From the NCBI GenBank assembly GCA_031261325.1, contig JAISKH010000053.1:29539-93538 (forward strand): a stretch of 64,000 nt of DNA, in the 5' to 3' direction. The position numbers were made by a program, and so were the translations under genes. Below the pieces are notes generated by a model. The model was not told the origin of the DNA, made no database searches, and saw nothing but the letters and a program-made list of their open reading frames with translations. Positions 1 through 17,234 of the stretch are shown in pieces; within the stretch, counting starts at the first letter, position 1; every line of letters starts with the position of its first letter. The stretch is from Oscillospiraceae bacterium (GTDB taxonomy: Bacteria; Bacillota; Clostridia; Oscillospirales; Oscillospiraceae).

Positions 1-5
1 ACGCG

Positions 6-1538
6 GTGCATGTGCAAAAGTTCCTGCAGCACCTGTCGGCAATTGTCCTGCTTGACGCGTCCGCACGCAAGTGTGGTTCTGTGGTAGCCACATTTACATA
101 CCCCGCGTCGCTTTCCAGCGTGGACGATTACAAGAATACCGCAAGTAACAGCTTCATCGCGGCGGAGTCGCTGTATATTGACGACGCCGTGACTACCAGA
201 GCACAGGTTAATCGGCAACCGAATTACATGACGGAGAGCGAGGCGGCGGCGCGGTTTTTCAAAAACCTCTACGGCGGCATAAACCGCATGTGCGTCATTG
301 ACATCGGCGGCGGCAGCTCGGACTTGTTCTATTGGGAGCTTGCGAACGCGCCCGCGGACGGGTTGCCGTATTATCGCGCGATAGACAGCTCGCTGAAGCT
401 CGGCGCGCAGGATATTGTTGTCGGCGCTCTTTATCGCAACGCTAAAAACATAATTAACAGTAATAAAAATCATAAGGATACGCAGATTTACAGATTGCTT
501 AGCGAAGCGAAGCTACTTAGAGACGACGGGATAGCCAACCCCGACGCGATTATAACAGGCGACCAGGTACGGAAGATTGTAGACCAAGCAAGGAAAGTGT
601 CACGGAACGACTTTAACGCGGACTGGGAAAGCCAACTGCTCCGCAAAACCCAAAACGGCGACACAGTAGGAAACCAACTGTTGAAGACAATAACCGGTCC
701 GACGTTTGTTATTGGAAAATCGGACGCCATGATGCTCACGGCTATAGCGTTTAACATCGCCGCGATTATGTACGCGGCGGGAATGTTGATGCGCAACGGT
801 AAAGGCGCGGCAAAAGCGCAGCTCGACGTCCAATTCTCCGGTAACGGTTCCAATATGGTTAAGTGGCTCGGCAGCAGTATGGCAATAACGGCATTTGTGC
901 GCGAAATACTTGTGAGGTCGAGCGGCACGGCTTTGAGCGGAAATATTAACGTTGGGTTTTCACCCAAGCTCAAGCATGAGGCGGCGGAGGGAATGCTGTG
1001 CGGTCCGATACAGTTCGGTGGCGCAGTCTTGAACCCCGTGCAGTTTACGGCGGCGGGAGAAAGCTATGTCGGACCGAAAGCAAGGGATATTGACGAGCAT
1101 GAATTGTGGTACAAGACCGTTATCGTACCCGGACATACGCTGGTTGTGCAGCAATCACTTGATAATTACCCCGCGTCGGCGACAAACTCATCAATGTCAG
1201 CCTTTGACAGGAGCACGCTGTTTGCGCTGGGAGACGTACAAACAGGCATTTCACCTAACACAATCGGGAGAACGGAGTTCGACGGGTTGCTGAACGCGTA
1301 TAATGCGGCGGTCATGAACCTGAACGCAACCAAGAATACAGCTAACCGAATAGTGTTAACGAACGCCGTAGCCAATCCGCTCGCCGGAGAGGTAAGATTA
1401 AGCGAGACGAAATGGGAAAGCAATCGAACGGCACTCATTTCAAACGCGCTTCAAAGTCCCAACGATAACCCGGGGTCGAAATCATTTTTCCTGTTAGAAG
1501 TGGAAGCTCTGCGCGAACTGCTGTACGCAGAACTATAG
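6..1538 (+). CDS. Actin-fold (ASKHA superfamily) ATPase; 5' end lies outside the window. Divergent, MreB/ParM/FtsA-like.
   Basis: Open from the window edge, so the N-terminal ~100-150 aa with the phosphate-1 motif are not visible. Contains 'MCVIDIGGGSSDLFYWE', which matches the phosphate-2 motif of actin-like ATPases (compare DnaK '[10 protein letters not shown]' in this same window; MreB/FtsA 'DIGGGTTD'). Strong SD (AAGGGGGA) and the ATG of the next gene follow 12 nt after its stop, indicating operon linkage. No other family signature recognised. Confidence 0.5.
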   Translation: MHVQKFLQHLSAIVLLDASARKCGSVVATFTYPASLSSVDDYKNTASNSFIAAESLYIDDAVTTRAQVNRQPNYMTESEAAARFFKNLYGGINRMCVIDIGGGSSDLFYWELANAPADGLPYYRAIDSSLKLGAQDIVVGALYRNAKNIINSNKNHKDTQIYRLLSEAKLLRDDGIANPDAIITGDQVRKIVDQARKVSRNDFNADWESQLLRKTQNGDTVGNQLLKTITGPTFVIGKSDAMMLTAIAFNIAAIMYAAGMLMRNGKGAAKAQLDVQFSGNGSNMVKWLGSSMAITAFVREILVRSSGTALSGNINVGFSPKLKHEAAEGMLCGPIQFGGAVLNPVQFTAAGESYVGPKARDIDEHELWYKTVIVPGHTLVVQQSLDNYPASATNSSMSAFDRSTLFALGDVQTGISPNTIGRTEFDGLLNAYNAAVMNLNATKNTANRIVLTNAVANPLAGEVRLSETKWESNRTALISNALQSPNDNPGSKSFFLLEVEALRELLYAEL

Positions 1539-1550
1539 GGTAAGGGGGAT

Positions 1551-3068
1551 ATGATGCATACATTCAAAAAGATGAAGCTGCTGCGCACCCTGACGGTTGC
1601 CGTGCTGCTTTGCATGGCGCTCGTGCTTGCGCTGCCCGGCGAGTTCTACGCAAACGCGGCATTGTCCGACGAAGCGAAAGCGGCGGAGCTGGAGAGCATA
1701 ATCGAGACAGACATTAGGGACTATATGCTGACGCTCGACACGGCGAAATTTACAAGCAACAAATTATCACTTGATAACGGCGAAAACAAATATACGATTA
1801 TGCGAAATGTAAAGGCTGATTTCAAGATGTATACGACTGAAGCGTCTTTTGAGAAAGGCAAAGAAAAACCGGAAGAGCCATGTGATGAGATAGTAGTTGT
1901 TTTGCCATGGACAAATGACAATGGTGTGTTCACAACTGATGACGGCTCGTATTTTGTGCGTGTTTATTCGTATTCTGTAAACATATTCTATGAAGATGAC
2001 CTGAAAACGCTGAAAAATACAGCGGTTCTGCTTCAAGATGGAAAACTGGAATATGATGGCACCATAAATAAAGAGTTTGTCGAATATGTAAAATCTGGCG
2101 ATGTGATTAGTTTGTGGGAACAAGTATTGCATGACCTTGCAGCCGACGCGGTTGTACCGCAGGAACCATCTGCTGTTGCGCAACCGTCGGAAACGCCTAC
2201 TCCTTCTGAGGCAGTTAAAACGGAAACAAACGCTCCCCCTGCGGACAACACCGCGAGCAATACCCCCGCTCCAAAGAGCGTCGCAATCAAAGGCGGGCAG
2301 TTTGTCGTTCTCATAATTCTCATAGTGCTTACAATAGCCTGCGGTGTCTTTGTTTTAGTGCAGATTGACAAAGTGTATAAGCACGTATCCACCACCAGTA
2401 AAAAAGTACTGGAAGCGATAGACAGGCTCGAGAAGAAAATAGATAAAGAGATTGAGGAGAACGAGATACACGTAATATCGGAAAATTTAGAGGAAATACT
2501 GAACAATCAGTCCAAGGGCGGCAAATCGACGCAGACAAAAGCAAGTAATGATTCATATTATACCGACTGGTATCCCGAAGAACGCAGTAAATCAGAGTTC
2601 GACTATAAAGCGTATTATGACGATTCCGCAAAACAAACACCCATCACCCCGCAATACAAAGACCCGCTGGCTGATTTACCGTTTCTGCTCGACGAATTGT
2701 CGGCGGTCACAGAGAACAACGGCGCGGGTTGGACGGAACGACCGGCGGTCGGGAAGCTCGAAAACAAGTACACAATCGGCAGGGACAGCACAGGAGTCGG
2801 CTATTCTGTTTCAAACACCGAAGTGTCGGAAAAGTCGTACATCGTCGGGTTCTCGCTCGGAAACAAACAGTATGCCATTCCAACGCTGAAAAGCGGCGAA
2901 TTGACTTCGCAACCGTGGCTGAAGGAATGGTTCGACATTCGAGGAGACATCAGAACGAAGCTAGGATTTACCATCATAAACCCTGCGGAGGTTGAGGGAA
3001 GCGCCGGTCAGGTGAACGGCACGGTCAGGTGCGCCAAAAAGGGCACAATAGAGGCGAAGAAATCTTGA
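1551..3068 (+). CDS. Secreted/bitopic membrane protein: signal peptide, ~190-aa extracellular domain, Pro/Thr/Ser-rich linker, one TM helix, cytoplasmic coiled coil and a conserved ~100-aa C-terminal domain
   Basis: N-terminus 'MKLLRTLTVAVLLCMALVLALPGEFYANA' is a signal peptide. Low-complexity 'PSETPTPSEAVKTETNAPPADNTASNTPAPKS' precedes the hydrophobic stretch 'FVVLIILIVLTIACGVFVLV'. The charged heptad-like stretch 'KKVLEAIDRLEKKIDKEIEENEI' follows. The C-terminal ~100 aa are paralogous to the C-terminus of the next gene. No family recognised. Confidence 0.55.
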   Translation: MMHTFKKMKLLRTLTVAVLLCMALVLALPGEFYANAALSDEAKAAELESIIETDIRDYMLTLDTAKFTSNKLSLDNGENKYTIMRNVKADFKMYTTEASFEKGKEKPEEPCDEIVVVLPWTNDNGVFTTDDGSYFVRVYSYSVNIFYEDDLKTLKNTAVLLQDGKLEYDGTINKEFVEYVKSGDVISLWEQVLHDLAADAVVPQEPSAVAQPSETPTPSEAVKTETNAPPADNTASNTPAPKSVAIKGGQFVVLIILIVLTIACGVFVLVQIDKVYKHVSTTSKKVLEAIDRLEKKIDKEIEENEIHVISENLEEILNNQSKGGKSTQTKASNDSYYTDWYPEERSKSEFDYKAYYDDSAKQTPITPQYKDPLADLPFLLDELSAVTENNGAGWTERPAVGKLENKYTIGRDSTGVGYSVSNTEVSEKSYIVGFSLGNKQYAIPTLKSGELTSQPWLKEWFDIRGDIRTKLGFTIINPAEVEGSAGQVNGTVRCAKKGTIEAKKS

Positions 3069-3076
3069 CAAACGAA

Positions 3077-4429
3077 ATGATTGTGATATTAAGCTGTGCA
3101 TCGCCGATAGTCCTGTTTGCGGTGTTTGCGATTGTTGTCTATCACAAGCTGCGGAAGCTGAAGCAAGCGGCGGTTGCGGCGGAGCTGAATATTGATTCAA
3201 ACACGCCGTTTGAGGTCGCCGAAGCGGAAGCGCACACAGCGACGATAAGCAACCTGCACAGCGCGTCGGACAACGCCTCGGACGCGTATGGCGCGATTGT
3301 CGCGCTTCAAATCGCGCTGGTGTCCATTAAGAAGTACTTACTGGACGCGTCAGGCGGTCTGTCGGAGAGCGTGAACGCGTTTGAGCGCGGCACCGATAAG
3401 CTCACCGTTCTTTCCCAAACGACGGGAGACGCGATAAAAAGCTTCTCGTCGGACGTCGCCGCGGCAATTGCGAACGGCGTTTCGGAGAGCGTCGGCACCG
3501 CAAACGAAAACGAGCAAGCTCTGCGCGAGAAATATTCTGACGCGGTAAACGGTTACATCGCCGCGTCGCAGAGCATGTTGACGGGGTTCGACCGCACGTC
3601 GGGCGGGTTCCGCACGGAGCACGACGTGTTCATTCAAACGTCGCAAGCGTTGCATAAGTCGATTAACGCTTCGGCGCAGTCGGCAAACGAACTGAAAAAC
3701 ATCGCGGTTGCGCTGAACTCGGACGGCGTGAAGTACCTCGACAAGTTGCAAACCACAACGGATAATCTTGAGAATAAGCGGCGAGAGTACGAAGCGCAGT
3801 TTGCCGCGCGCACAAATCCCGACATTGAGGGCGCGTTCAGGAAGCTTGAGGACGAGAAACGCCGCGCGAAGTCGCCCGAAGCGAACGCCATGGCACCGCG
3901 GCAATCGACCGACGAATTTTGGAAACGACTTGTGCGGGCAGTTCAAAACGGAGCGGAAAAAGCCGCGCAGACGGACGTGACCGCGTTGCTCCGCGACTTG
4001 TCCGAGAGCACCAAGCTTAACGGCGTAGGTCTGACGAACTCGGAAACTGTCAAGAATCTCGAAAACAAGTTTGAAATCGGCAAAACCGCAAGCGGAACGG
4101 GCTATACGATTGCAAATACTGAAGTGTTGTACGAATCGTATCTCGTCGGCTTCAGTCTCGGGGGCAAAATTTACGCCATACCGACGCTGAAAGGCAGCGC
4201 CTTAAGCTCGCAGAAGTGGCTGTCGGACTGGTTCGACATCAGCGGGGCAATCGACCCGCTGCGCGGCTTCACGATTAAGAAGCTGGCGGAGGTTAACATC
4301 TCGGAATCGGGCGCGGTCAAGTGCACCGCGAAAGGCGTGATTCAAGCGAATTGGGCGCAACCCGCGAATCAAAGCAATCCAAATCAAACAGTAAAGGGGA
4401 GAGCAAAGGGTGACGTTAGGAAAAAGTGA
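3077..4429 (+). CDS. Bitopic membrane protein: N-terminal TM anchor, long alpha-helical region, and a C-terminal ~100-aa domain paralogous to that of the upstream gene
   Basis: ATG at 3077 is in frame with the 3029 ORF and gives 'MIVILSCASPIVLFAVFAIVVYHKLRKLK' (TM followed by basic residues, so the C-terminus is predicted inside). The middle is Ala/Ser/Gln-rich and helical. The C-terminus 'LENKFEIGKTASGTGYTIANTEVLYESYLVGFSLGGKIYAIPTLKGSALSSQKWLSDWFDISG' aligns with 'LENKYTIGRDSTGVGYSVSNTEVSEKSYIVGFSLGNKQYAIPTLKSGELTSQPWLKEWFDIRG' of the 1551 gene. Confidence 0.55.
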   Translation: MIVILSCASPIVLFAVFAIVVYHKLRKLKQAAVAAELNIDSNTPFEVAEAEAHTATISNLHSASDNASDAYGAIVALQIALVSIKKYLLDASGGLSESVNAFERGTDKLTVLSQTTGDAIKSFSSDVAAAIANGVSESVGTANENEQALREKYSDAVNGYIAASQSMLTGFDRTSGGFRTEHDVFIQTSQALHKSINASAQSANELKNIAVALNSDGVKYLDKLQTTTDNLENKRREYEAQFAARTNPDIEGAFRKLEDEKRRAKSPEANAMAPRQSTDEFWKRLVRAVQNGAEKAAQTDVTALLRDLSESTKLNGVGLTNSETVKNLENKFEIGKTASGTGYTIANTEVLYESYLVGFSLGGKIYAIPTLKGSALSSQKWLSDWFDISGAIDPLRGFTIKKLAEVNISESGAVKCTAKGVIQANWAQPANQSNPNQTVKGRAKGDVRKK

Positions 4430-5399
4430 CATCGGGTACCTGCATTTCATCGCGCTTGCTGTGCTGTACATAGTGTCATTCGCGGTCACGGTGCTGTACG
4501 GCGTTCTGTGGTTCGCCCCTGCGGCGACATTTGCGGCGGCTTTCGCGCTGTTTGTCGCGGTTCAGATTCGCACCGCGCTCGGCACCGCGACGCTTGCCGA
4601 AATCAGAACCTTCACGCTCGCGGTCGGCGAAATATCAATACTCGGCGTTGTGTCATGGCTCGTGCTTCCGCTGATTGCGCGAACGCTGACGCAGACGGTG
4701 CAAATTGTCGCGGTTGCCGAATTTGTCCTCGGCGCGGGAATGCTGTGCGTGCTGTACGCGAGCTTTAACGCGTACCAAAAGCGTATGCAGACCGATAAGG
4801 CGGTGACGGAGAACACAGGCAGACTCGGGCTGCTCACGCTTGACGTCGCGAACGTCCTGCAAGACATTCAACTGGACGCGAGTGAGAACGAGCTGATTGT
4901 CACGAACTGCGTTGATAACATCGAACGAGCAATCGACAACATGGACGGATACCTGACGTGGCAGGAAGTTGTGTCCGGCGAAATGCGTCAAATATTTGAC
5001 AGCACATTAAAAAGCATATACAAAAACGCGGCGAAAGAGTTTGAAAAGCTCTCGGAATCGGGGCTTGCCATTATTGATTCTTACGCGCGCGATATAACCG
5101 AAAAAATGACCGAGAACGCGCGACTTTCCGAATCGGCCGCGGAAAGGTTCCTGCAAGAAGTCGCAAAATACAAGGCGTTTAGCGCCGACTCCGCAAAGGC
5201 GGCGGACAGCCTGAATTACGCGACCGAAAACCTGACGAAAATGCTCACTCCGCACGTCAAGCTGTTTCAACAGGCGGACGCGCTTATCGCGCGCGCTTCA
5301 AATGAATTTCAGATATTCACGTCGCAATGCGCGCACTCGTTTAATGACGAGATGAAAAAGCAGATGGAAATAGCTCTGGCGCAAATCAAAAAAGTGTAG
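4410..5399 (+). CDS. Polytopic (~4 TM) membrane protein with a ~200-aa cytoplasmic alpha-helical domain
   Basis: GTG start preceded by AAGGGGAG. It overlaps the stop of the previous gene by 20 nt. The N-terminal 120 aa hold about four hydrophobic helices (e.g. 'YLHFIALAVLYIVSFAVTVLYGVLWFAPAATFAAAFALFVAV'). The remainder is charged and helical ('EFEKLSESGLAIIDSYARDITEKMTENARLSE'). No family recognised. Confidence 0.5.
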   Translation: MTLGKSDIGYLHFIALAVLYIVSFAVTVLYGVLWFAPAATFAAAFALFVAVQIRTALGTATLAEIRTFTLAVGEISILGVVSWLVLPLIARTLTQTVQIVAVAEFVLGAGMLCVLYASFNAYQKRMQTDKAVTENTGRLGLLTLDVANVLQDIQLDASENELIVTNCVDNIERAIDNMDGYLTWQEVVSGEMRQIFDSTLKSIYKNAAKEFEKLSESGLAIIDSYARDITEKMTENARLSESAAERFLQEVAKYKAFSADSAKAADSLNYATENLTKMLTPHVKLFQQADALIARASNEFQIFTSQCAHSFNDEMKKQMEIALAQIKKV

Positions 5400-5404
5400 T
5401 TATT

Positions 5405-6790
5405 ATGAAAAAAGCTGTACTTACAATAGCAATTATTTTGTCGGCGGTTATCGCGCTTTTCGGTTGCGGCTCACCCCGCAATAAGAGCGTGCCAATCGAC
5501 GCGTATTTGCTGCGCGAATTGTCCAATCTTGCGACGACAATCGACGTTTCGGACTACAACATCTCGGCGGAAGAGTTCGACAAGGTGATAAACGACTTTC
5601 TCGAGAACAACACAGACATTTTCTATATCGGAAACGCGTATGAATATACGCAAATTGACGACGCGGTAGACGTCGTAACACTACAATATACTGACACGCC
5701 CGAGAACATAAAGGTGCGCTATCGCCAGATTCGCGAGGGAATTGAGCTTTCGGTGTACGAGCTGCTGTACAGCGAGTTGTCCGCGTATGCCGACGAAATT
5801 GACCTGTCGGCATACAAGATACCCCCGTCCGACATGGAACTGCTGTTTAAGGGCTTCCTAAGCGTTCACACGAAGCTGTATTACGTTGACAGCGAGCTTG
5901 AATTTGTATATTCAAACGGCATTGTCGGCGTAATATACCCGCATTACATCAGCGACAAGGTACCGCCGCCGCAACCGACGGACAGCCCGACTCCGCCGCC
6001 AAGCGAGCAGCCGCAGTCAAGCGAAGCCCCGCCGCCGACGCAGAAGCCGCCCGCACCTGAAACGCTCACGCTTGAGGAATTGCTTGTCCGCGAGATTGAG
6101 AGCTACGCCAAGTCGATTGACATTTCGTCGTATGCGATATACGAAAGCGAATTGAGCGATGTTTACTTCGGCTTTATGGACGAGCACCCTGAATTGTTTT
6201 ACGCGCAGGGGCGCGTCAGCTATTCCGAGGATTCGTCGGGCAAAATTACAATCGTCTACCCGTTCTACAGCGCGGAGCCTGACGTTATAACCGTGCAGCG
6301 GCGGGAGTTCGAGGCGGCGGTGGACGCGGCAGTCGCCGCGATACCCGTCGGCTTAACCGACGCGGAAAAGGTCGTTGCCGTCAGCGACTACTTATGCGTG
6401 AACGCGACGTATGACCTCACATATGAGCACAGGTTCGCTTACGACATACTCGTTCTCGGAATCGGCGTTTGCAACGGGTATGCCGACGCGTATAACGTGA
6501 TACTGTCGCGTCTCGGCATCGAGAGCTTCAAGCTGATAAGTATAGGCATGAACCACGCGTGGACTATGGTCAAAATCAACGGCGAATGGTACCATTGCGA
6601 CGCGACATGGAACGACCCAACGCCCGATGTCGGCAACGTATACCACAGTTACATTCTCCTGCCCGACGACGTAATGTCCGACAACAGGCATAACCACTAC
6701 GGCTGGGTGGAAACCGCCCCACCGGCCGACGACTATACATATGTTGATGCATACTGGATAACGGAAAGCAGCCCCATAAACTTCGGTTGA
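5405..6790 (+). CDS. Lipoprotein with two internally repeated N-terminal domains, a Pro-rich linker and a C-terminal transglutaminase-like (papain-fold Cys-His-Asp) domain
   Basis: The signal peptide carries a lipobox, 'ALFGC'. Two similar segments are present ('DVSDYNISAEEFDKVINDFLENNTDIFYIGNAYEY' and 'DISSYAIYESELSDVYFGFMDEHPELFYAQGRVSY'). The linker is 'PPPQPTDSPTPPPSEQPQSSEAPPPTQKPPAPE'. The C-terminal 'GIGVCNGYADAY ... NHAWTMVKINGEWYHCDATWND' matches the transglutaminase-like core (G-x-C-x-x-Y-A, H-A-W, D-x-T). The start lies 5 nt after the previous stop. Confidence 0.6.
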   Translation: MKKAVLTIAIILSAVIALFGCGSPRNKSVPIDAYLLRELSNLATTIDVSDYNISAEEFDKVINDFLENNTDIFYIGNAYEYTQIDDAVDVVTLQYTDTPENIKVRYRQIREGIELSVYELLYSELSAYADEIDLSAYKIPPSDMELLFKGFLSVHTKLYYVDSELEFVYSNGIVGVIYPHYISDKVPPPQPTDSPTPPPSEQPQSSEAPPPTQKPPAPETLTLEELLVREIESYAKSIDISSYAIYESELSDVYFGFMDEHPELFYAQGRVSYSEDSSGKITIVYPFYSAEPDVITVQRREFEAAVDAAVAAIPVGLTDAEKVVAVSDYLCVNATYDLTYEHRFAYDILVLGIGVCNGYADAYNVILSRLGIESFKLISIGMNHAWTMVKINGEWYHCDATWNDPTPDVGNVYHSYILLPDDVMSDNRHNHYGWVETAPPADDYTYVDAYWITESSPINFG

Positions 6791-6814
6791 GATTTGTAAC
6801 CGCAGGTTACAAAC

Positions 6815-6858
6815 GAGCGGGAGACTTCAGGCAATATGCTTGAAGTCTCCCGTTTTCG
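6815..6858 (+). terminator. Rho-independent terminator closing the five-gene operon
   Basis: GGGAGACTTCA-ggcaatatgc-TTGAAGTCTCCC forms an 11-bp GC-rich stem. It is followed by GTTTTCG and lies immediately after the stop at 6790. Confidence 0.7.
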
Positions 6859-7037
6859 TTAATAAAGTTACAATTCATACGTTAAAGTGTATATATAATC
6901 ATGTTGAAAATTACGCCAATATGTGATAAACTACAATCAGCACAATAGCTTGTGCCGTAGAGTATATCAGTTCTTGCCGAATAAAGTCATACCGCGTAAA
7001 AACGGCATGAACGGCGGATTGTGATGGGTAGAAAATT

Positions 7038-8501
7038 ATGTTACTTAAAAAAAGAACCGTAATCCTCATTGCGGTTATTGTCTTAGTGGTTGACGCCGCG
7101 CTCGCCCTTGGCGGATTTTACATAGCTCGCATAGACGAAACAGCGGTTTACGCGTTGCCGATTGCGGCGATATTGGCGGCGGCAGTCACGCTGCTGCCGA
7201 TTCTTTCGCTTCTGCGACTGCTGAAAAACGGCGCGGACAACATCGACAAGTTTCTAAAGCTCGCGTCGGCGGGTCATCTTGAAAAACGCTTTGAGGAAAA
7301 CAGCGCGGAAGCCTTCCCGGAAATCGCGACAAATCTGAATATCATGATGGCAAATCTGGAGAAAATGAGCCACGCCAAGAGCGATTTTCTCTCCAGCATG
7401 AGTCATGAAATTCGCACGCCCATGAGCGCGATTATAGGCATGGCGCAAATCGCGCGCAACGCCACGGATAAGGCGAGAATCGACGACTGTCTGCAAAAAA
7501 TCGAGGACAACTCCAAGCACCTGATTGGCGTTATCAACGACATTCTCGACTTCTCAAAGGTCGAATCCGGCAAGCTCCAGCTTGACGAGCAGCTCTTCTC
7601 GCTGAGGGAAAATCTGGCGTTTGTCGAATCCATGTTCCAAGGCAAGATGGAGGAAAAGCACCTCGACTTCAGCCTTGTCGTCAAGGACATCAAGAACGAC
7701 GGCATAGTCACGGATTCGCTGCGCCTTAACCAAGTGCTGATAAACCTGCTGTCCAACGCCGTGAAGTTCACGAACGCGGGCGGTAAAGTCACCCTCACGG
7801 CGGAGGAGCTTATGCACATGGGCAACGACAGCGTTTACGCTTTCGCCGTCACCGACACGGGCATAGGCATTGAACCCGAGCAGGCGAAAAAGCTGTTCAC
7901 GCCGTTCGTACAGGCGAGCGCGGGTACGGCGAAGCTATACGGCGGAACGGGGCTTGGGCTTGTGATTTCCAAGAACATCGTCGAAAAAATGGGCGGCGAC
8001 ATTGAGCTTGACAGCGTGCCCGGAGAGGGGAGCACGTTCAGCTTCACAATCCGCGTCGTCTCACAGGAAGCCGCCGAGCCCGCCGCGCAGGAGGAAGAGG
8101 AGCAAGGCGCGCCCGACTTCCACGGCAAGCGGCTCCTTATAGTGGACGACATTGAGATTAACCGCGAGATTGCGGTTGAGATACTGCGCGAAACCTGCGT
8201 CGAAATGGAATGCGCGGAGAACGGCAAGGTCGCGCTCGACATGTTCCTGAACGCGCCAGAGGGCTATTACGACATGATTCTCATGGATATGCAAATGCCT
8301 GTAATGGACGGCTGCGAGTCAACCGAAATGATACGCAAGAGCGGCAAGCGCGACGCGGCGACAATCAAAATCGTCGCCGTGACGGCGAACGTCATGCGTG
8401 ACGACGTGGCGCGCGCCTATGCCGCAGGTATGAACGGACACATCGGCAAGCCCATCGACTTCGGTGAAGCTTACAAGATAATGGCGACAATGCTGAAATA
8501 G
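7038..8501 (+). CDS. Hybrid sensor histidine kinase with a C-terminal receiver domain
   Basis: Two N-terminal TM segments. H-box 'SHEIRTPMSAIIGMAQI'. N-box 'LLSNAVKFT'. G-boxes 'DTGIGI' and 'GGTGLGLVISKNIVEKMGG'. The receiver shows 'LLIVDDIEINREIA ... ILMDMQMPVMDG ... KIVAVTA'. Confidence 0.85.
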   Translation: MLLKKRTVILIAVIVLVVDAALALGGFYIARIDETAVYALPIAAILAAAVTLLPILSLLRLLKNGADNIDKFLKLASAGHLEKRFEENSAEAFPEIATNLNIMMANLEKMSHAKSDFLSSMSHEIRTPMSAIIGMAQIARNATDKARIDDCLQKIEDNSKHLIGVINDILDFSKVESGKLQLDEQLFSLRENLAFVESMFQGKMEEKHLDFSLVVKDIKNDGIVTDSLRLNQVLINLLSNAVKFTNAGGKVTLTAEELMHMGNDSVYAFAVTDTGIGIEPEQAKKLFTPFVQASAGTAKLYGGTGLGLVISKNIVEKMGGDIELDSVPGEGSTFSFTIRVVSQEAAEPAAQEEEEQGAPDFHGKRLLIVDDIEINREIAVEILRETCVEMECAENGKVALDMFLNAPEGYYDMILMDMQMPVMDGCESTEMIRKSGKRDAATIKIVAVTANVMRDDVARAYAAGMNGHIGKPIDFGEAYKIMATMLK

Positions 8502-8648
8502 GCGATATACTGTAAAACAACCATAAGGTCAAGGACGCAACGCGGCGTAATTTCTCCAATGAGTTCCGGCGCAAATTGTTCACAACCCGCGTCGGCGGTT
8601 ATTTATACGCGAAACGGCAAGTAAAAAAAGTTGGGGTGTGTTGTAGTT

Positions 8649-9734
8649 TTGAAGAAGCTTTGGGATAAACGAGTTTATATGGTGATTGCCGTGAGTATAA
8701 TCCTGTTCCTGACCGTGAGTATCCTGTCATTCGTCTCCATAAAGCAGCTGCAAGGCAACGCGCGCGTCGTCAATTACGACGGCATAGTGCGCGGCGCGAC
8801 GCAGAAGCTGATGAAAATGGAGCTACAAAGCGCGTACTCGGGCGGCGTTGACGTCGGAGCGCGCGACGCGCTGCGGGAGCGGCTTGACGCGATTCTCCAC
8901 GCGCTTGACACGGGCGAGGGCTTGACGGAGGAAACCCAAAACATCATTGCGCTGCAAGATGAAACGCACAGCGGAATGATTAAGGCGCTCCTTGAAAAAT
9001 GGGCGGCGCTAAAAGACGAGATTCAGCGCGTGCGCGGCGGCGCGAACCCCGAAACGCTCTACACAATGAGCGAGGAATACTTCAAGCTCGCAAATGACAC
9101 GGTTTTCGCGGCGGAGGACTTCTCGGAAAGTCAGGTTGACAACACGACGACGATTCTGCTCGGCGTAAACGCGGTGTTTATCCTGTTCATCTTGGTCGCC
9201 GTAATCTTCATCGTCCGCAGCATGGCGGTCAGGCGGCGCGCGGACATGCTCGGCAAAATAGCGTACATCGACCCGCTGACTCAGCTCGAAAACCGCGCGA
9301 GCTGCGAGCGGCTGATTGCGCGCTACAAGGCAAGCCCGCCGCAGGGCAGCGTCGCCGTATTGATGTTCGACATGAACAACCTCAAGCTGGCGAACGACTT
9401 CCTCGGTCATCAGGGCGGCGACCAGATTATCTTCAATTTCGCAAAAATAATCGGCAACGAAGCGAAAGACTTCGGTTTCGTCGGGCGTTACGGCGGCGAC
9501 GAGTTCCTCGCCGTACTGGAGCGCGCGGACGAATCGCGGGCGGAGGAATACCTGCAACGCGTGAACAGTCAGATTGCGGCTTACAACTCCCTGCGCGTGA
9601 ACGACATTGAGAAAATCAGCTTCGCCGCGGGAATCGCGTCGGGCACGTTGGCGGATAATGAAATCGACGACTTGATTTACGCGGCGGACAGAAACATGTA
9701 CGCCAACAAACGCGAGATGAAAAAGTCGCTCTAA
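8649..9734 (+). CDS. Membrane-anchored diguanylate cyclase (GGDEF domain) with a periplasmic/extracytoplasmic sensor region
   Basis: 'GGDEF' is present in 'RYGGDEFLAVLERAD'. An upstream 'DPLTQLENR' stretch is also present. There are two TM segments. The start is uncertain: TTG at 8649 after GGGGTG, while the ORF track opens at 8631. Confidence 0.8.
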   Translation: MKKLWDKRVYMVIAVSIILFLTVSILSFVSIKQLQGNARVVNYDGIVRGATQKLMKMELQSAYSGGVDVGARDALRERLDAILHALDTGEGLTEETQNIIALQDETHSGMIKALLEKWAALKDEIQRVRGGANPETLYTMSEEYFKLANDTVFAAEDFSESQVDNTTTILLGVNAVFILFILVAVIFIVRSMAVRRRADMLGKIAYIDPLTQLENRASCERLIARYKASPPQGSVAVLMFDMNNLKLANDFLGHQGGDQIIFNFAKIIGNEAKDFGFVGRYGGDEFLAVLERADESRAEEYLQRVNSQIAAYNSLRVNDIEKISFAAGIASGTLADNEIDDLIYAADRNMYANKREMKKSL

Positions 9735-13116: not shown

Positions 13117-13623
13117 CTAACTTCTGACCTCGCGTCTCGTAACCGCACGCGCCGCGAAATACACGGGTATCGTGAATATCAGCGAGGTATACGTCTGCAA
13201 AAACGCGGTTTGCAGCAGCGGGCGCAGTTCCACGCCGTCAAAAAACAGCAGCGGGAACATCTGCACAAACGCCATCACGACAAGCGTCAGCGCGCAGCAC
13301 ACGAAATACGTCGGGAATCCGCGCGCCATAACGGTGTCGGACAAAAACCCGATAACCAGCCCGACGACCGCAAGCACAAGCGTCGCTGAAGCGACAGGTT
13401 GGTGAAACGACACGTCGCACAGCATACCCGCCGCGATGCCGACAATGCCGCCGCGCACGCTCCCGCCGAACACGCCCGCGCCCACAACCGCGAGCGGCAG
13501 CAGCAGCGGAATCGCCGCAAGCCGAGGAATGTACGGCAGCAGCAGCCCCTGAAACATGTACAGCACGAGCAGCAGCAGCGTGTTCGGCAGGATTGAGTAC
13601 AGAGCCTTACGTCGTTTAATCAT
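13117..13623 (-). CDS. mreD: Rod shape-determining protein MreD
   Basis: 168-aa polytopic membrane protein between mreC and PBP2. Size and position are typical of MreD. No catalytic motif is expected. Confidence 0.65.
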   Translation of the reverse strand: MIKRRKALYSILPNTLLLLVLYMFQGLLLPYIPRLAAIPLLLPLAVVGAGVFGGSVRGGIVGIAAGMLCDVSFHQPVASATLVLAVVGLVIGFLSDTVMARGFPTYFVCCALTLVVMAFVQMFPLLFFDGVELRPLLQTAFLQTYTSLIFTIPVYFAARAVTRREVRS

Positions 13624-13633
13624 AAACCCCCGC

Positions 13634-14482
13634 CTAACCCGTCACGGTAAATTCCGTGATGATGTACACATAGCTCACGCCCGCGTTGCGAACCTCCGCC
13701 GCGGGACGAACCTCCGCGTACATGCCCAATCCCGTCGGGTTGCGCAGCACGCGCGCGACCTCACCGATAACAAGCCCCTCGGGCAGCACGCCGCTCTTGC
13801 CGGAGGTGACAACCGAGTCGCCCGCGAGCACCGCCGTGTCGTCCGACAAATAGTCAAGCTTCAGCAAACCCTCCCGCATCAGCGCGAAGTCGCCCGTAAT
13901 CACGCCGTTCGCGCCCAGCTCGCCAATCAGTGCGCCCGCCGAAAACGTCGTGTCAATAACGGAAACCGCCGTTGAGGTCGTAAGGTCAACCTTTGATATG
14001 CGCCCGACAATAACACCCGTCTCGGTAATAACCGCGTCGCCGACCGACACCTCCGAGTTTGTCGAGCCTTTACTGAGTGTGAACGACGACTGCCAGTTCG
14101 ACGCGCTCCATGACAGAATAGTCGCCGTGTCGTACTTGCGGTCGGAGTGCCGCGCCGTCAGCCCAAGCAAGTCGCGCAGACGCGCGTTCTCCTCCGAAAC
14201 CTCGGTATACTCGCGGTAATCCTGCTTGAACCCCGCAATCTGCTCTTTCAGCATGTTGTTCTCCGCAACCACCTTGTCGTACTCGTACATATAACCGTAA
14301 ATGCTCTCAAACGTGCGCGCCATGGCGGCGACGGCGTTCTTAAGCGGCTTTACAATCACGTCCGCGGCGGTTGACACCGCGCCGGGAGTACCCGTCGTGT
14401 TAACCGCGACAATCGCGACGGTGGCGATAAGCACCGCGACGATTAAGATGATAACATTCCGTTTCGTAACAAAAACTCTCAT
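13634..14482 (-). CDS. mreC: Rod shape-determining protein MreC
   Basis: N-terminal TM, a coiled coil ('ENNMLKEQIAGFKQDYREYTEVSEENARLRDLL') and a beta-rich C-terminal domain ('GDAVITETGVIVGRISKV'). These are characteristic of MreC. Confidence 0.8.
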   Translation of the reverse strand: MRVFVTKRNVIILIVAVLIATVAIVAVNTTGTPGAVSTAADVIVKPLKNAVAAMARTFESIYGYMYEYDKVVAENNMLKEQIAGFKQDYREYTEVSEENARLRDLLGLTARHSDRKYDTATILSWSASNWQSSFTLSKGSTNSEVSVGDAVITETGVIVGRISKVDLTTSTAVSVIDTTFSAGALIGELGANGVITGDFALMREGLLKLDYLSDDTAVLAGDSVVTSGKSGVLPEGLVIGEVARVLRNPTGLGMYAEVRPAAEVRNAGVSYVYIITEFTVTG

Positions 14483-15114
14483 TGAAATCCCTTTAAGCTT
14501 TCAGTCAATACATTAAAGTTAAATTCGTCCCGCAGTACTGCCGCGAGTGCGCAGAGCGGCAAACCCATGACGTTGAAGAAATCGCCGTCCAAACGCTCGA
14601 TAAACAGCGCGCCCAAGCCCTGCGCACCGTATGCGCCCGCCTTGTCCAGCGGCTCGCCCGTCGCGACGTAAGCCGCAATCTCGTCGTCGCGCAGTTCGCG
14701 GAACCGCACAACCGTCCGCTCATAGCGAGCAACCTCGCGCGTTTCACGACCGCTCTTGCCGAGCACGGCGAAGCCCGTGTAAACCTCATGCTCGCGCCCC
14801 GACAGCCGCGCCAGCATGTCCGCCGCATCAAGCGCGTCACGCGGCTTACCTAGTGCGCCGCCCTCCGAAAACACAAGCGTGTCGGCGGCAATCACAAGCA
14901 CGTCGGCTTGCGAATTTGCCTGATTTTCGCGCGCCCAAACTTCACGCGCCCAAACTTCACGCGCTTTGCCGAGCGCGATAGACTTAACCGTTTCGGCGGG
15001 AGAGCCTTGCGCCGCAACCTCGTCGCCCCGCGCCGGAATAACCTCAAAAGCAAGCCCCAACATCGCGAGCAGCTCACGGCGGCGCGGCGAAGCGGAGGCA
15101 AGAATGAGACGCAT
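14479..15114 (-). CDS. maf: Maf-like nucleoside triphosphate pyrophosphatase / septum formation protein
   Basis: 'MRLILASASPRRRELLAMLGLAFEVIPARGDE' is the Maf N-terminal signature. The ATG overlaps the stop of the upstream U32 gene (ATGA). It contains a perfect 15-bp tandem duplication (see findings). Confidence 0.85.
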   Translation of the reverse strand: MRLILASASPRRRELLAMLGLAFEVIPARGDEVAAQGSPAETVKSIALGKAREVWAREVWARENQANSQADVLVIAADTLVFSEGGALGKPRDALDAADMLARLSGREHEVYTGFAVLGKSGRETREVARYERTVVRFRELRDDEIAAYVATGEPLDKAGAYGAQGLGALFIERLDGDFFNVMGLPLCALAAVLRDEFNFNVLTESLKGFQ

Positions 15115-17234
15115 CACTCCACCCCCTTGTAGTACAGTCCGCGCGTAATCCCGCCCGGCTCGTAGCCCGACAGCCCGAGGTAACGCCGAAAGACGGACAC
15201 GCACTCAACCGCGTTCTCCGTCGTAAAGCTCAAACGCCCCGCCCACAGCCCGATTTTCGCCCAATCCTCAAGCCTGTCCGCCATGAACAGCTTGCGTGAA
15301 TTGAGCACGACCGTGCGGCACTTATAGTCGGCGCGCTGCGCACCCTCACGCACGACGGGGAACACAACGCCGCGCCTGTCCGAAAGCCCCGCAAAGTTGT
15401 CGCATGAGCAAACGCCCGTCGCGTTGCGTATCACGCAGTTTTCCGTCAGCATGAGGGGCAGCCGCCCGTAAACAATCAATTCCGTGTCAATCGGCTTTGC
15501 GATGTCGCGAATCTGCGCAAGCATAAGCTCAAACGACAGCGTCGTCGAGACAAGCCCCAAGTCGCGCACGGTTTTCAGCGTCTGCGCGTTGAACACGTTC
15601 AGCCCGAAGTCGCCCCGCGCGTTCAGCCCAAGCTCGCGCACGGTCAGCACCTGCCCGAGATTATGCACGAGCGCGTCCTGTATCCCGAGCTTTTTCGCCG
15701 CGTCCAGCAGGGCGCGCACGCGCTCATACTCCTCGTCAAATATGACGCGCGGCAGGGAAGCCGCAATCGGAATGCCCGCCTCAAGCAGCGGCTCAAGCTG
15801 TTTTTTGTGGCGCAGCTCCTCAAGCGGAATGTACACAAGGTTCGGCTTCAGCGCGGCAAGCTCCGGCGAGAGCTGCGCAGCTTTCAGCACAGATATGTTC
15901 AGCACGGGTTGAGTCTCGCGCGTCTCGTTCTCCTTACGCACCTGCGACGGCTCGTCCGCGATATACGCGTGCTCCTGCGGCGGCGTAAACGGTCTGCGCT
16001 TTTCCATAAGCTCCGCGAGAATGTCTCGCCGAAGCTCATTGACCGCCGAGACGGGCAGCGACAGCCCCGAATCGACGTTTATCTTCGTGCCGACGCACAG
16101 GAAAGGCGTGCCGCCCGTCTTATGCAGCTGCGTTTTAAGCGTCGCGGCGGTCAGCTCGCGGTGAAACGCAAGCTCCGGCAGAGCTCCCGTCGCGACGGCG
16201 GTGTTGCCCCTGTCGTCGATTGCCGCGAGCTTCATCGGCTCGCCCGCCAACACGGACGCGACGAACCGCACGGGCACGCGGCGAAACTCACCGCTCAAAT
16301 AATTGCGCCGCGCGGTGGAGAACATCACGTTTTCGGGCTTTGCGTCCTCGTCGCGCACGCCGAACATGCCGCCGTCGCGCTTGCCGGTATAGTACCCGTC
16401 GGTAAACCCCGAGCGGGAAAACGCGGATTCCAACGCCTTAAGGTCGTCCTCGGAAGGTTCCTTGTTCTCGCGCGCCGCGCGGCTGTAAATACCCGTAACA
16501 ATCGCGGCGTATTCCGGACGCTTCATGCGCCCCTCAATCTTCACGCACGTAACGCCGAGCTTTTCCAGCTCTTCAAGGTGCCCGACGAGACAGTTGTCCT
16601 TCAAGCTCAAGGGATACTCAACGGCGCGGTTGCCCGCCGAATACGGCAAACGACACGGCTGTGCGCACAGACCGCGATTACCGCTCCTGCGCCCGATTAC
16701 AGAGCTGAAGTAGCATTGCCCCGAATAGCTCATGCACAGCGCGCCGTGCACGAATATCTCCGTCTCAATCGGCGCGTTCTTGGTTATGTGCCGTATCTCA
16801 TCACGCGGCAATTCCCGCGCGAGAATAACGCGCGACAGACCCATCGCGGCGGCGAGCTTCGCGCCCTCAAGATTGTGCACGCCCATCTGCGTGCTTGCGT
16901 GCAGCGGCACATCGGGCAATACCTGCCGCAGAGCGCGCATAAGCCCCAAGTCCTGCACGATAAAAGCGTCCGCGCCGAGCTTTGCCGCCGTTTTCGCGAC
17001 GGCGAGCGCGCCGTGAATTTCGCGGTCGGAGACGAGCGTGTTCAGCGTGAGGTAGACCTTCACGCCGCGCACGCGGCAATATTCCGCCGCCGTGGCGAAG
17101 TCGGACTCCGAGAAGTTTTTCGCGTTGCGCCGCGCGTTAAAGTCGCCCATGCCTAAGTAAACCGCGTCCGCGCCGTTCTGCACAGCCGCCACAACGCCCT
17201 CAGGCGACCCTGCGGGCGATAAGATTTCGAGCAT
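15114..17234 (-). CDS. Peptidase U32 family protein (collagenase-like), long form
   Basis: 'MLEILSPAGSPEGVVAAVQNGADAVYLGMGDFNARRNAKNFSE' is the U32 N-terminal signature. 706 aa. Confidence 0.8.
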   Translation of the reverse strand: MLEILSPAGSPEGVVAAVQNGADAVYLGMGDFNARRNAKNFSESDFATAAEYCRVRGVKVYLTLNTLVSDREIHGALAVAKTAAKLGADAFIVQDLGLMRALRQVLPDVPLHASTQMGVHNLEGAKLAAAMGLSRVILARELPRDEIRHITKNAPIETEIFVHGALCMSYSGQCYFSSVIGRRSGNRGLCAQPCRLPYSAGNRAVEYPLSLKDNCLVGHLEELEKLGVTCVKIEGRMKRPEYAAIVTGIYSRAARENKEPSEDDLKALESAFSRSGFTDGYYTGKRDGGMFGVRDEDAKPENVMFSTARRNYLSGEFRRVPVRFVASVLAGEPMKLAAIDDRGNTAVATGALPELAFHRELTAATLKTQLHKTGGTPFLCVGTKINVDSGLSLPVSAVNELRRDILAELMEKRRPFTPPQEHAYIADEPSQVRKENETRETQPVLNISVLKAAQLSPELAALKPNLVYIPLEELRHKKQLEPLLEAGIPIAASLPRVIFDEEYERVRALLDAAKKLGIQDALVHNLGQVLTVRELGLNARGDFGLNVFNAQTLKTVRDLGLVSTTLSFELMLAQIRDIAKPIDTELIVYGRLPLMLTENCVIRNATGVCSCDNFAGLSDRRGVVFPVVREGAQRADYKCRTVVLNSRKLFMADRLEDWAKIGLWAGRLSFTTENAVECVSVFRRYLGLSGYEPGGITRGLYYKGVE

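Follow-up and report, generated by a model that had tools for sequence, protein, structure and literature searches.

A paralogous C-terminal domain shared by two adjacent membrane proteins encoded downstream of a predicted Hsp70-like ATPase in an uncultured Clostridia genome

Domains that occur as two copies in adjacent genes have been described in conflict systems of MoxR-vWA or DO-GTPase type, in which these effector-associated domains (EADs; EAD1-10) are proposed to couple gene products by homotypic interaction and in which vWA, tubulin-like and HSP70-like components are also used (Kaur, Burroughs, Iyer, Aravind 2020; PMC7159879). Operons of the vWA/FtsZl1 type contain other genes that are lineage-specific, have no known domains and often encode transmembrane (TM) segments (PMC2875224). 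Here we describe two adjacent genes, g2 and g3, located at the left end of a 64-kb stretch of DNA (the window, meaning the whole stretch that was analysed) from one uncultured gut-type Clostridia metagenome-assembled genome (MAG; "Oscillospiraceae bacterium"). Both encode membrane proteins that end in a paralogous domain of ca. 125 residues and both belong to a group of same-strand genes labelled g1 to g5. The features that define the shared domain are the following:

1551..3068, + strand: g2, encoding a 505-aa type I membrane protein, as deduced from the list of open reading frames (ORFs), hydropathy and flanking charges
2673..3056, + strand: shared domain, copy 1, corresponding to g2 aa 375-502, from BLASTP and shuffles
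3065..4429, + strand: g3, encoding a membrane protein of 454 aa (start TTG 3065) or 450 aa (start ATG 3077)
3974..4348, + strand: shared domain, copy 2, corresponding to g3 aa 300-424 in the 450-aa numbering, from BLASTP and shuffles

BLASTP comparison of g2 (1551-3065, 505 aa) with g3 (3077-4426, 450 aa) returned a single significant alignment (E = 9e-36), in which g2 375-502 is paired with g3 300-424 with 66 identities over 128 positions (52%) and 3 gap positions. The Smith-Waterman score of 310 lies far above the values obtained in 500 shuffles (40.4 +/- 5.4, maximum 68; z = 50). An initial annotation of this DNA had proposed such a paralogous C-terminal domain in adjacent membrane proteins, to be checked by pairwise alignment against shuffled controls, and these results confirm it; the motif string quoted there is present as written in the g2/g3 alignment. 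The domain is real but its limits had to be redrawn, since it starts at ca. 2673 rather than at 2745, the extra ca. 70 nt upstream taking in a conserved helix (D..LL..LS..T..NG), and the identity is 52% instead of 45-50%. The N-terminal parts of the two proteins are unrelated, as had also been stated (score 42 vs 37.2 +/- 5.3 in shuffles, z = 0.9), and the cytoplasmic tails taken alone give z = -0.85. Only one Cys is invariant in the two-sequence alignment. A tblastn search of the window detected these two copies only.

At the nucleotide level the copies are 62% identical (52% at third codon positions) and have diverged at a dN of 0.43 and a dS of ca. 0.95, corresponding to a dN/dS of ca. 0.45. 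Because of these values, a recent duplicate, gene conversion and a decaying copy can be ruled out. By these estimates the duplication is old and both copies have been retained under purifying selection.

Over the domain, no match was obtained in Pfam, NCBIfam, PHROG or PADLOC, and a domain profile matched none of the PDB sequences. A word-indexed search of 5.8 billion proteins revealed no relative beyond g2 and g3. When 1.84 billion cluster representatives were searched with the domain profile by full HMMER, exactly two proteins came out, again g2 and g3; their clusters consist solely of start-site variants of a single MAG (LBN30_04980 / MDR0862110.1) and one identical-DNA Logan assembly. No relative was found either in a scan of 185,579 species-representative genomes and IMG/VR. 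In the public data searched, the domain is thus an orphan by sequence, each copy being the only detectable relative of the other, and the search for a standalone family in metagenomes, which had been suggested initially, yielded none beyond g2 and g3.

The topology of both proteins was deduced from hydropathy and the positive-inside rule. In g2, a signal-peptide-like segment (aa 10-28) has 3 K/R ahead and ANA↓A after it, and a second hydrophobic helix (aa 252-270) has 4 K/R in the next 15 residues. The signal peptide (aa 1-37) is followed by an ectodomain (~38-205), which a P/S/T-rich linker (~206-250) joins to the TM helix (252-274); on the cytoplasmic side come a K/E-rich tail (275-374) and then the shared domain (375-502). 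The protein has no above-threshold family match in Pfam, NCBIfam, PHROG or PADLOC. The sole hydrophobic helix of g3 (aa 6-24) has 0 K/R before and 4 K/R after it. This N-terminal TM anchor is followed by a helical, coiled-coil-like cytoplasmic region of ~270 aa that gives weak coiled-coil-type family matches only (Pfam, PADLOC), then by the shared domain and a basic tail of 26 aa. Both domain copies are therefore predicted to lie on the cytoplasmic side, in agreement with their original placement.

The two genes overlap at their junction. The TTG start of g3 at 3065 is preceded by AGAGG 10 nt upstream and overlaps the g2 stop codon (TGA 3066-3068) as TTGA, and g3 is called from this TTG (454 aa) by both NCBI and Logan. 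Given this overlap and the translational coupling it implies, the two products are probably made in matched amounts. The remaining genes of the group are:

1..1538, + strand: g1, 3' part, comprising the final 510 codons for a cytoplasmic protein of 1224 aa, whose ORF is cut by the window start
4410..5399, + strand: g4, 329 aa, with ~4 TM helices in its N-terminal part and a C-terminal region that is helical
5405..6790, + strand: g5, closing the operon and encoding a 461-aa lipoprotein that has an LFGC lipobox and, at the C-terminal end, a transglutaminase-like core

The 5' end of g4 overlaps the 3' end of g3 by 20 nt. From the tight packing and the g2/g3 and g3/g4 overlaps, g1 to g5 look like one translationally coupled operon, within which no convincing internal promoter or terminator was detected relative to shuffled controls. 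The g4 product has no family match (Pfam, NCBIfam, PHROG). That of g5 matches Pfam Transglut_core (E 8e-9) and, under the family cut-off, an NCBIfam transglutaminase-related lipoprotein (E 1.4e-15). The N-terminal half of g5 also contains three internal repeats of ~75 aa (aa ~31-105, 106-185 and 216-300), with pairwise z values of 11-15 against shuffles and no match to any Pfam family.

The full-length g1 protein corresponds to P0006 (MAG locus tag LBN30_04975), for which an identical Logan contig was also recovered. It has no signal peptide, matches no Pfam, NCBIfam or PADLOC family and gives no match to the Pfam HSP70, MreB and actin models even at E <= 10. It carries the motifs GVDFGTSSTT (phosphate-1) and DIGGGSSD (phosphate-2), which are conserved in 8 homologues and are signatures of the ASKHA superfamily (actin/Hsp70/sugar-kinase fold). 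Among seven distant homologues (18-24% identity) the patterns [VI]G[VI]DFG[TS] and D[IV]GG[GE][ST][ST]D are invariant, in the right order and ~215 residues apart. When compared with PDB sequences, the g1-family profile matched the phosphate-2 region of MreB, FtsA, Ppx (exopolyphosphatase) and actin (best E 0.006). An AlphaFold2 (AF2) model of residues 570-1224 has a mean predicted local distance difference test score (pLDDT) of 48 and a predicted TM-score (pTM) of 0.56, with core elements at 60-86, and its Foldseek matches are nearly all Hsp70/DnaK nucleotide-binding domains (E 1.5e-4, probability 1.0, TM-score 0.28-0.45). With low confidence, the model suggests that the C-terminal half of g1 is an ASKHA / Hsp70-like nucleotide-binding domain; no recognisable Hsp70 substrate-binding domain was found in the protein. 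The initial description of g1 as an actin-like ATPase is thus adequate at the level of the ASKHA superfamily, but the nearest fold is that of Hsp70/DnaK and not that of actin, FtsA or PilM. A family-conserved, moderately hydrophobic helix was also observed at P0006 958-976 (window ~730-790; Kyte-Doolittle hydropathy 1.8-1.95). It is modelled as a helix of the ATPase core, and its equivalent in relatives reads LxLISLGVAGLLYYxGLLL.

Only g1 has homologues in other loci (labelled L002-L014), none having been found there for g2 to g5; a metagenome scan with the g1 alignment yielded three distant loci. A Tubulin_2/FtsZl1-type gene lies directly ahead of the g1 homologue in all the related loci that were recovered, with a Tubulin_2 match of 31.8 bits in L003 (gathering threshold, GA, 27) and a Pfam mark that is faint or absent in L006 and L014. 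The conserved core order comprises a lipoprotein of ~430-490 aa, in which a vWA-like DxSxS motif was seen by eye, a TM protein of ~135-160 aa, a tubulin-like protein of ~480-536 aa and the g1-like giant. This core corresponds to the vWA/FtsZl1 operons of Makarova & Koonin 2010.

In every related locus, the giant ATPase gene is followed by one for a membrane protein. These next-gene proteins (labelled 'd') are lineage-specific and single-pass, with a cytoplasmic C-terminal globular part, and because such a protein is encoded next to the g1 homologue in the related loci, a membrane partner for the ATPase is a conserved theme. In L008 and L009 the membrane protein is built like g2, with an ectodomain between the signal peptide and an S/T/P linker, then a TM helix and a cytoplasmic tail, so that position and architecture are shared with g2 without sequence similarity. 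The downstream genes encode, in L002-L005, OmpA, a transglutaminase-like protein and a MotA/ExbB-like one that has a long coiled coil, a TerD pair and OmpA in L014, Sel1, Zn-ribbon and phosphatase proteins in L010, and a Zn-ribbon P-loop protein in L009. With the exception of the TerD pair in L014, no two partners that share a domain were found in the other loci of the g1 family.

Several other features of these loci were observed. A transglutaminase-like membrane protein is also the last gene product in the related operons L002-L004. In the Gram-negative-type relatives (L002:14619-17736, L003:8282-11228, L004:8918-11840), two proteins follow the one labelled 'd': a MotA/ExbB-like protein with a coiled-coil tail of ~450 aa (Pfam MotA_ExbB 20.9 bits, GA 22.9) and a protein with a TM segment and an OmpA domain, a stator-like pair reminiscent of ZorA/ZorB. 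The g3 helical region itself gives a weak match to PADLOC ZorA (E 0.007) that probably reflects coiled-coil composition only. In L009, the 'd' gene is followed at 13460-14662 by a gene encoding 400 aa, of which an N-terminal segment is Cys-rich and zinc-ribbon-like and which include a P-loop (GVSASGKTT); by eye, this protein resembles the DO-GTPases linked by Kaur et al. to tubulin, vWA and HSP70. Finally, loci with g1 homologues adjoin TerD/TerB stress genes, genes that encode a TraG/VirD4-type coupling protein or a PIN toxin, and also an IS1595 transposase (L014:13771-14977; L010:2021-3286; L006:172-735 and 16019-16933), a neighbourhood which hints that the g1-type system may travel on or near mobile/defence-type regions.

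Homology between the shared domain and the C-termini of the 'd' proteins (L002-L004, ~375 aa; L006 d807; L008 d523; L009 d524) was considered on the basis of a by-eye pattern (YA[IV].P ... [WV]F[DE] ... I.PA ... KG.[IL]E) and rejected. The hhalign probability for the domain against the 'd' proteins is 0.1, a hidden Markov model (HMM) of the 'd' family applied to the window ORFs gave no match to the domain, the g2/g3-domain HMM gave none among six-frame ORFs of seven loci, and Smith-Waterman comparison of the domain with the 'd' C-termini gave z < 1 relative to shuffles.

The domain probably serves in coupling, be it by g2-g3 pairing or by docking on g1. Such a role is favoured because the paralogy is confined to the C-termini of two proteins encoded by coupled genes, because both copies have been kept and are predicted on the cytoplasmic side, and because no enzymatic or ligand-binding family is matched by copies that are each other's sole relatives. 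The pattern is also the one that Kaur et al. report for EADs as coupling adaptors, and the recurrent membrane partner of the ATPase in related loci speaks for it as well. In the arrangement that we propose, the module of ~125 residues, a product of duplication that is specific to this lineage, would be non-enzymatic and would couple proteins to one another in the cytoplasm. With its extracellular domain of ~200 aa, g2 would probably act as a sensing or anchoring subunit and g3 would bring the ~270-aa cytoplasmic helical stalk. The two copies would then form a pseudo-symmetric heterodimer whose ancestor was a homodimer, joining g2 and g3 in one membrane complex beneath the Hsp70-like ATPase g1, a complex that would also include g4 and the extracellular transglutaminase-like lipoprotein g5. 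Pairing of the two copies with each other, for which we infer both the partner and the binding of a protein, is the likeliest form of coupling, a credible proposal that we nonetheless advance with reserve.

Each copy might instead bind the same surface on g1, or on a presumed upstream FtsZl1, and not the other copy, which we regard as a close rival, somewhat less likely than pairing. Two membrane proteins would in this case be recruited to, or remodelled by, one ATPase, an arrangement compatible with pairing. Several J-domain proteins share one Hsp70, and RodZ and PilN tether MreB and PilM. The position of g1, encoded immediately upstream with its ASKHA/Hsp70-like domain, is consistent with such docking, as is the membrane protein with a cytoplasmic C-terminal domain that follows the g1 homologue in related loci; because these loci have a single membrane partner, they favour binding to the core over pairing with a second copy. 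The domain, however, is not a J domain (no match to DnaJ, PF00226, in g2 or g3 and no HPD motif in either copy), no copy of it occurs in g1 or in the g1 homologues, and the partner proteins of the related loci have no detectable similarity to it and so do not point to a conserved docking site on g1. On a bolder reading, the domain would be the first example to be recognised of a new fold by which tubulin-like/Hsp70-like (vWA/FtsZl1) systems couple membrane to core, the 'd' proteins of other phyla having C-termini that share this fold, though not its sequence, and bind the ATPase; this we consider unlikely.

Two other explanations dispense with assembly or with a cytoplasmic location. Each copy could be a sensor or effector of its own (binding a nucleotide, a second messenger or a lipid, or acting as a cryptic enzyme), its presence in both proteins reflecting an input or output common to them. 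The genes for a hybrid histidine kinase and for a GGDEF cyclase just downstream would fit a second-messenger link by proximity only, but no ligand-binding or enzymatic match was obtained in Pfam, NCBIfam, PADLOC or PDB and, apart from the invariant Cys, the alignment displays no conserved catalytic-looking His/Asp/Cys constellation, which makes an independent function improbable. Less probable still, and very unlikely, is a reversed topology in which the domain would be a cell-wall or surface-binding module outside the cell. An alternative GTG start of g3 at 3029 would indeed put some positive charge before its TM helix; yet three independent gene callers start g3 at 3065 or 3077, the charges flanking this helix are those given above, the clear signal peptide and second TM helix of g2 put its C-terminus inside, and the long K/E-rich helical regions ahead of both domains are typical of cytoplasmic stalks.

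A number of points weigh against coupling by pairing of the g2 and g3 domains within such a complex. The AF2 model of the domain, obtained from a two-sequence alignment, has a pLDDT of 40; tentatively, and with low confidence, it contains two helices followed by a strand-rich part and appears mixed alpha/beta. Foldseek comparison of this model with PDB gave no match (best E 3.9), which left the structural check proposed in the initial annotation uninformative. Hydropathy and charge rules are the sole basis of the topology, and among the g1-family loci the shared-domain arrangement occurs once, in one MAG. The membership of this MAG's genes in an FtsZl1 operon is extrapolated from the homologues, the window and the contig L001 both starting inside g1.

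Taken by its sequence, the domain family appears to be new, nothing similar having been found, and its apparent kind is a known one, that of a duplicated adaptor in adjacent genes. If pairing or docking is true, the domain would provide a concrete handle on operons that combine vWA, an FtsZ-like tubulin, a giant Hsp70-like ATPase and variable membrane proteins, a class for which membrane remodelling or a part in conflict has been predicted since 2010 and which has no experimental model. If the coupling reading with a new fold is true, the g2/g3 duplication would show how such systems gain membrane subunits. Taken alone, the domain concerns one uncultured lineage and says little of general biology, and because of this confinement its generality and the testing of co-variation are limited. 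Of greater interest than the domain itself is the tubulin-like/Hsp70-like system around it.

The operon is followed on the same strand by two signalling genes, one directly after it (7038-8501) encoding the hybrid histidine kinase (HisKA, HATPase_c and receiver) and one at 8631-9734 encoding the membrane GGDEF diguanylate cyclase. Together with g1 to g5 they occupy the first 10 kb, where the GC content is 0.51-0.53 vs 0.55-0.63 for most of the window, and this low-GC segment may mark a horizontally acquired island. No tRNA gene was found in the window. A mobile-element origin was considered, and blastn of positions 1-7000 against phage and plasmid collections gave no match. The remainder of the window consists of chromosomal housekeeping genes (PolC, AddAB, UvrB, PBP2 and a U32 peptidase).

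When compared with known adaptors, the g2 and g3 proteins are reminiscent of several systems. Membrane-anchored J-domain co-chaperones (E. coli DjlA; Sec63) recruit Hsp70 to the membrane. By analogy, g2 and g3 would do likewise, as single-pass proteins with a C-terminal cytoplasmic domain that is shared by several carriers. The J domain, however, is a four-helix bundle, whereas the domain found here is predicted, with low confidence, to be strand-rich. The shared domain of PilN and PilO heterodimerises in the periplasm, both proteins being N-in/C-out, and it is not this domain but a short peptide at the N-terminal end of PilN that binds PilM. The initial annotation had likened the logic of the present arrangement to that of PilN/PilO, and this likeness stands in so far as adjacent genes encode two bitopic proteins with a paralogous globular domain beside an ASKHA-fold, ATPase-like neighbour (PilM in the pilus system). 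It does not extend to the proteins themselves, since a Pfam scan at E <= 1 gave no match to PilN or PilO (PF05137 / PF04350) in g2 or g3, the domain is predicted in the cytoplasm with the topology opposite to that of PilN/PilO, where it lies out of the membrane on the other side, and g1 is closer to Hsp70 than to PilM or FtsA.

The description of lineage-specific TM genes in vWA/FtsZl1 operons (PMC2875224) fits g2 to g4, and the duplicated partner domain is a feature of g2 and g3 that is undescribed for these operons. The closest parallel is with the EADs. Most EADs are alpha-helical, in contrast with the g2/g3 domain of ~125 aa, which appears mixed alpha/beta and is restricted to one lineage. 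Of the two EAD copies, one is joined to a defined core component (VMAP, iSTAND or GAP1) and the other to an effector or signalling domain, whereas both carriers are membrane proteins in g2/g3, and no recognisable effector domain was found in g3 (Pfam, PADLOC). As in EADs, the domain is small, lacks enzymatic features and occurs in adjacent genes on otherwise unrelated modules, and the adjacent copies in g2 and g3 were found to be the closest relatives of each other among the 1.84 billion representatives searched. By analogy of architecture, the g2/g3 domain would thus have the hallmarks of an EAD.

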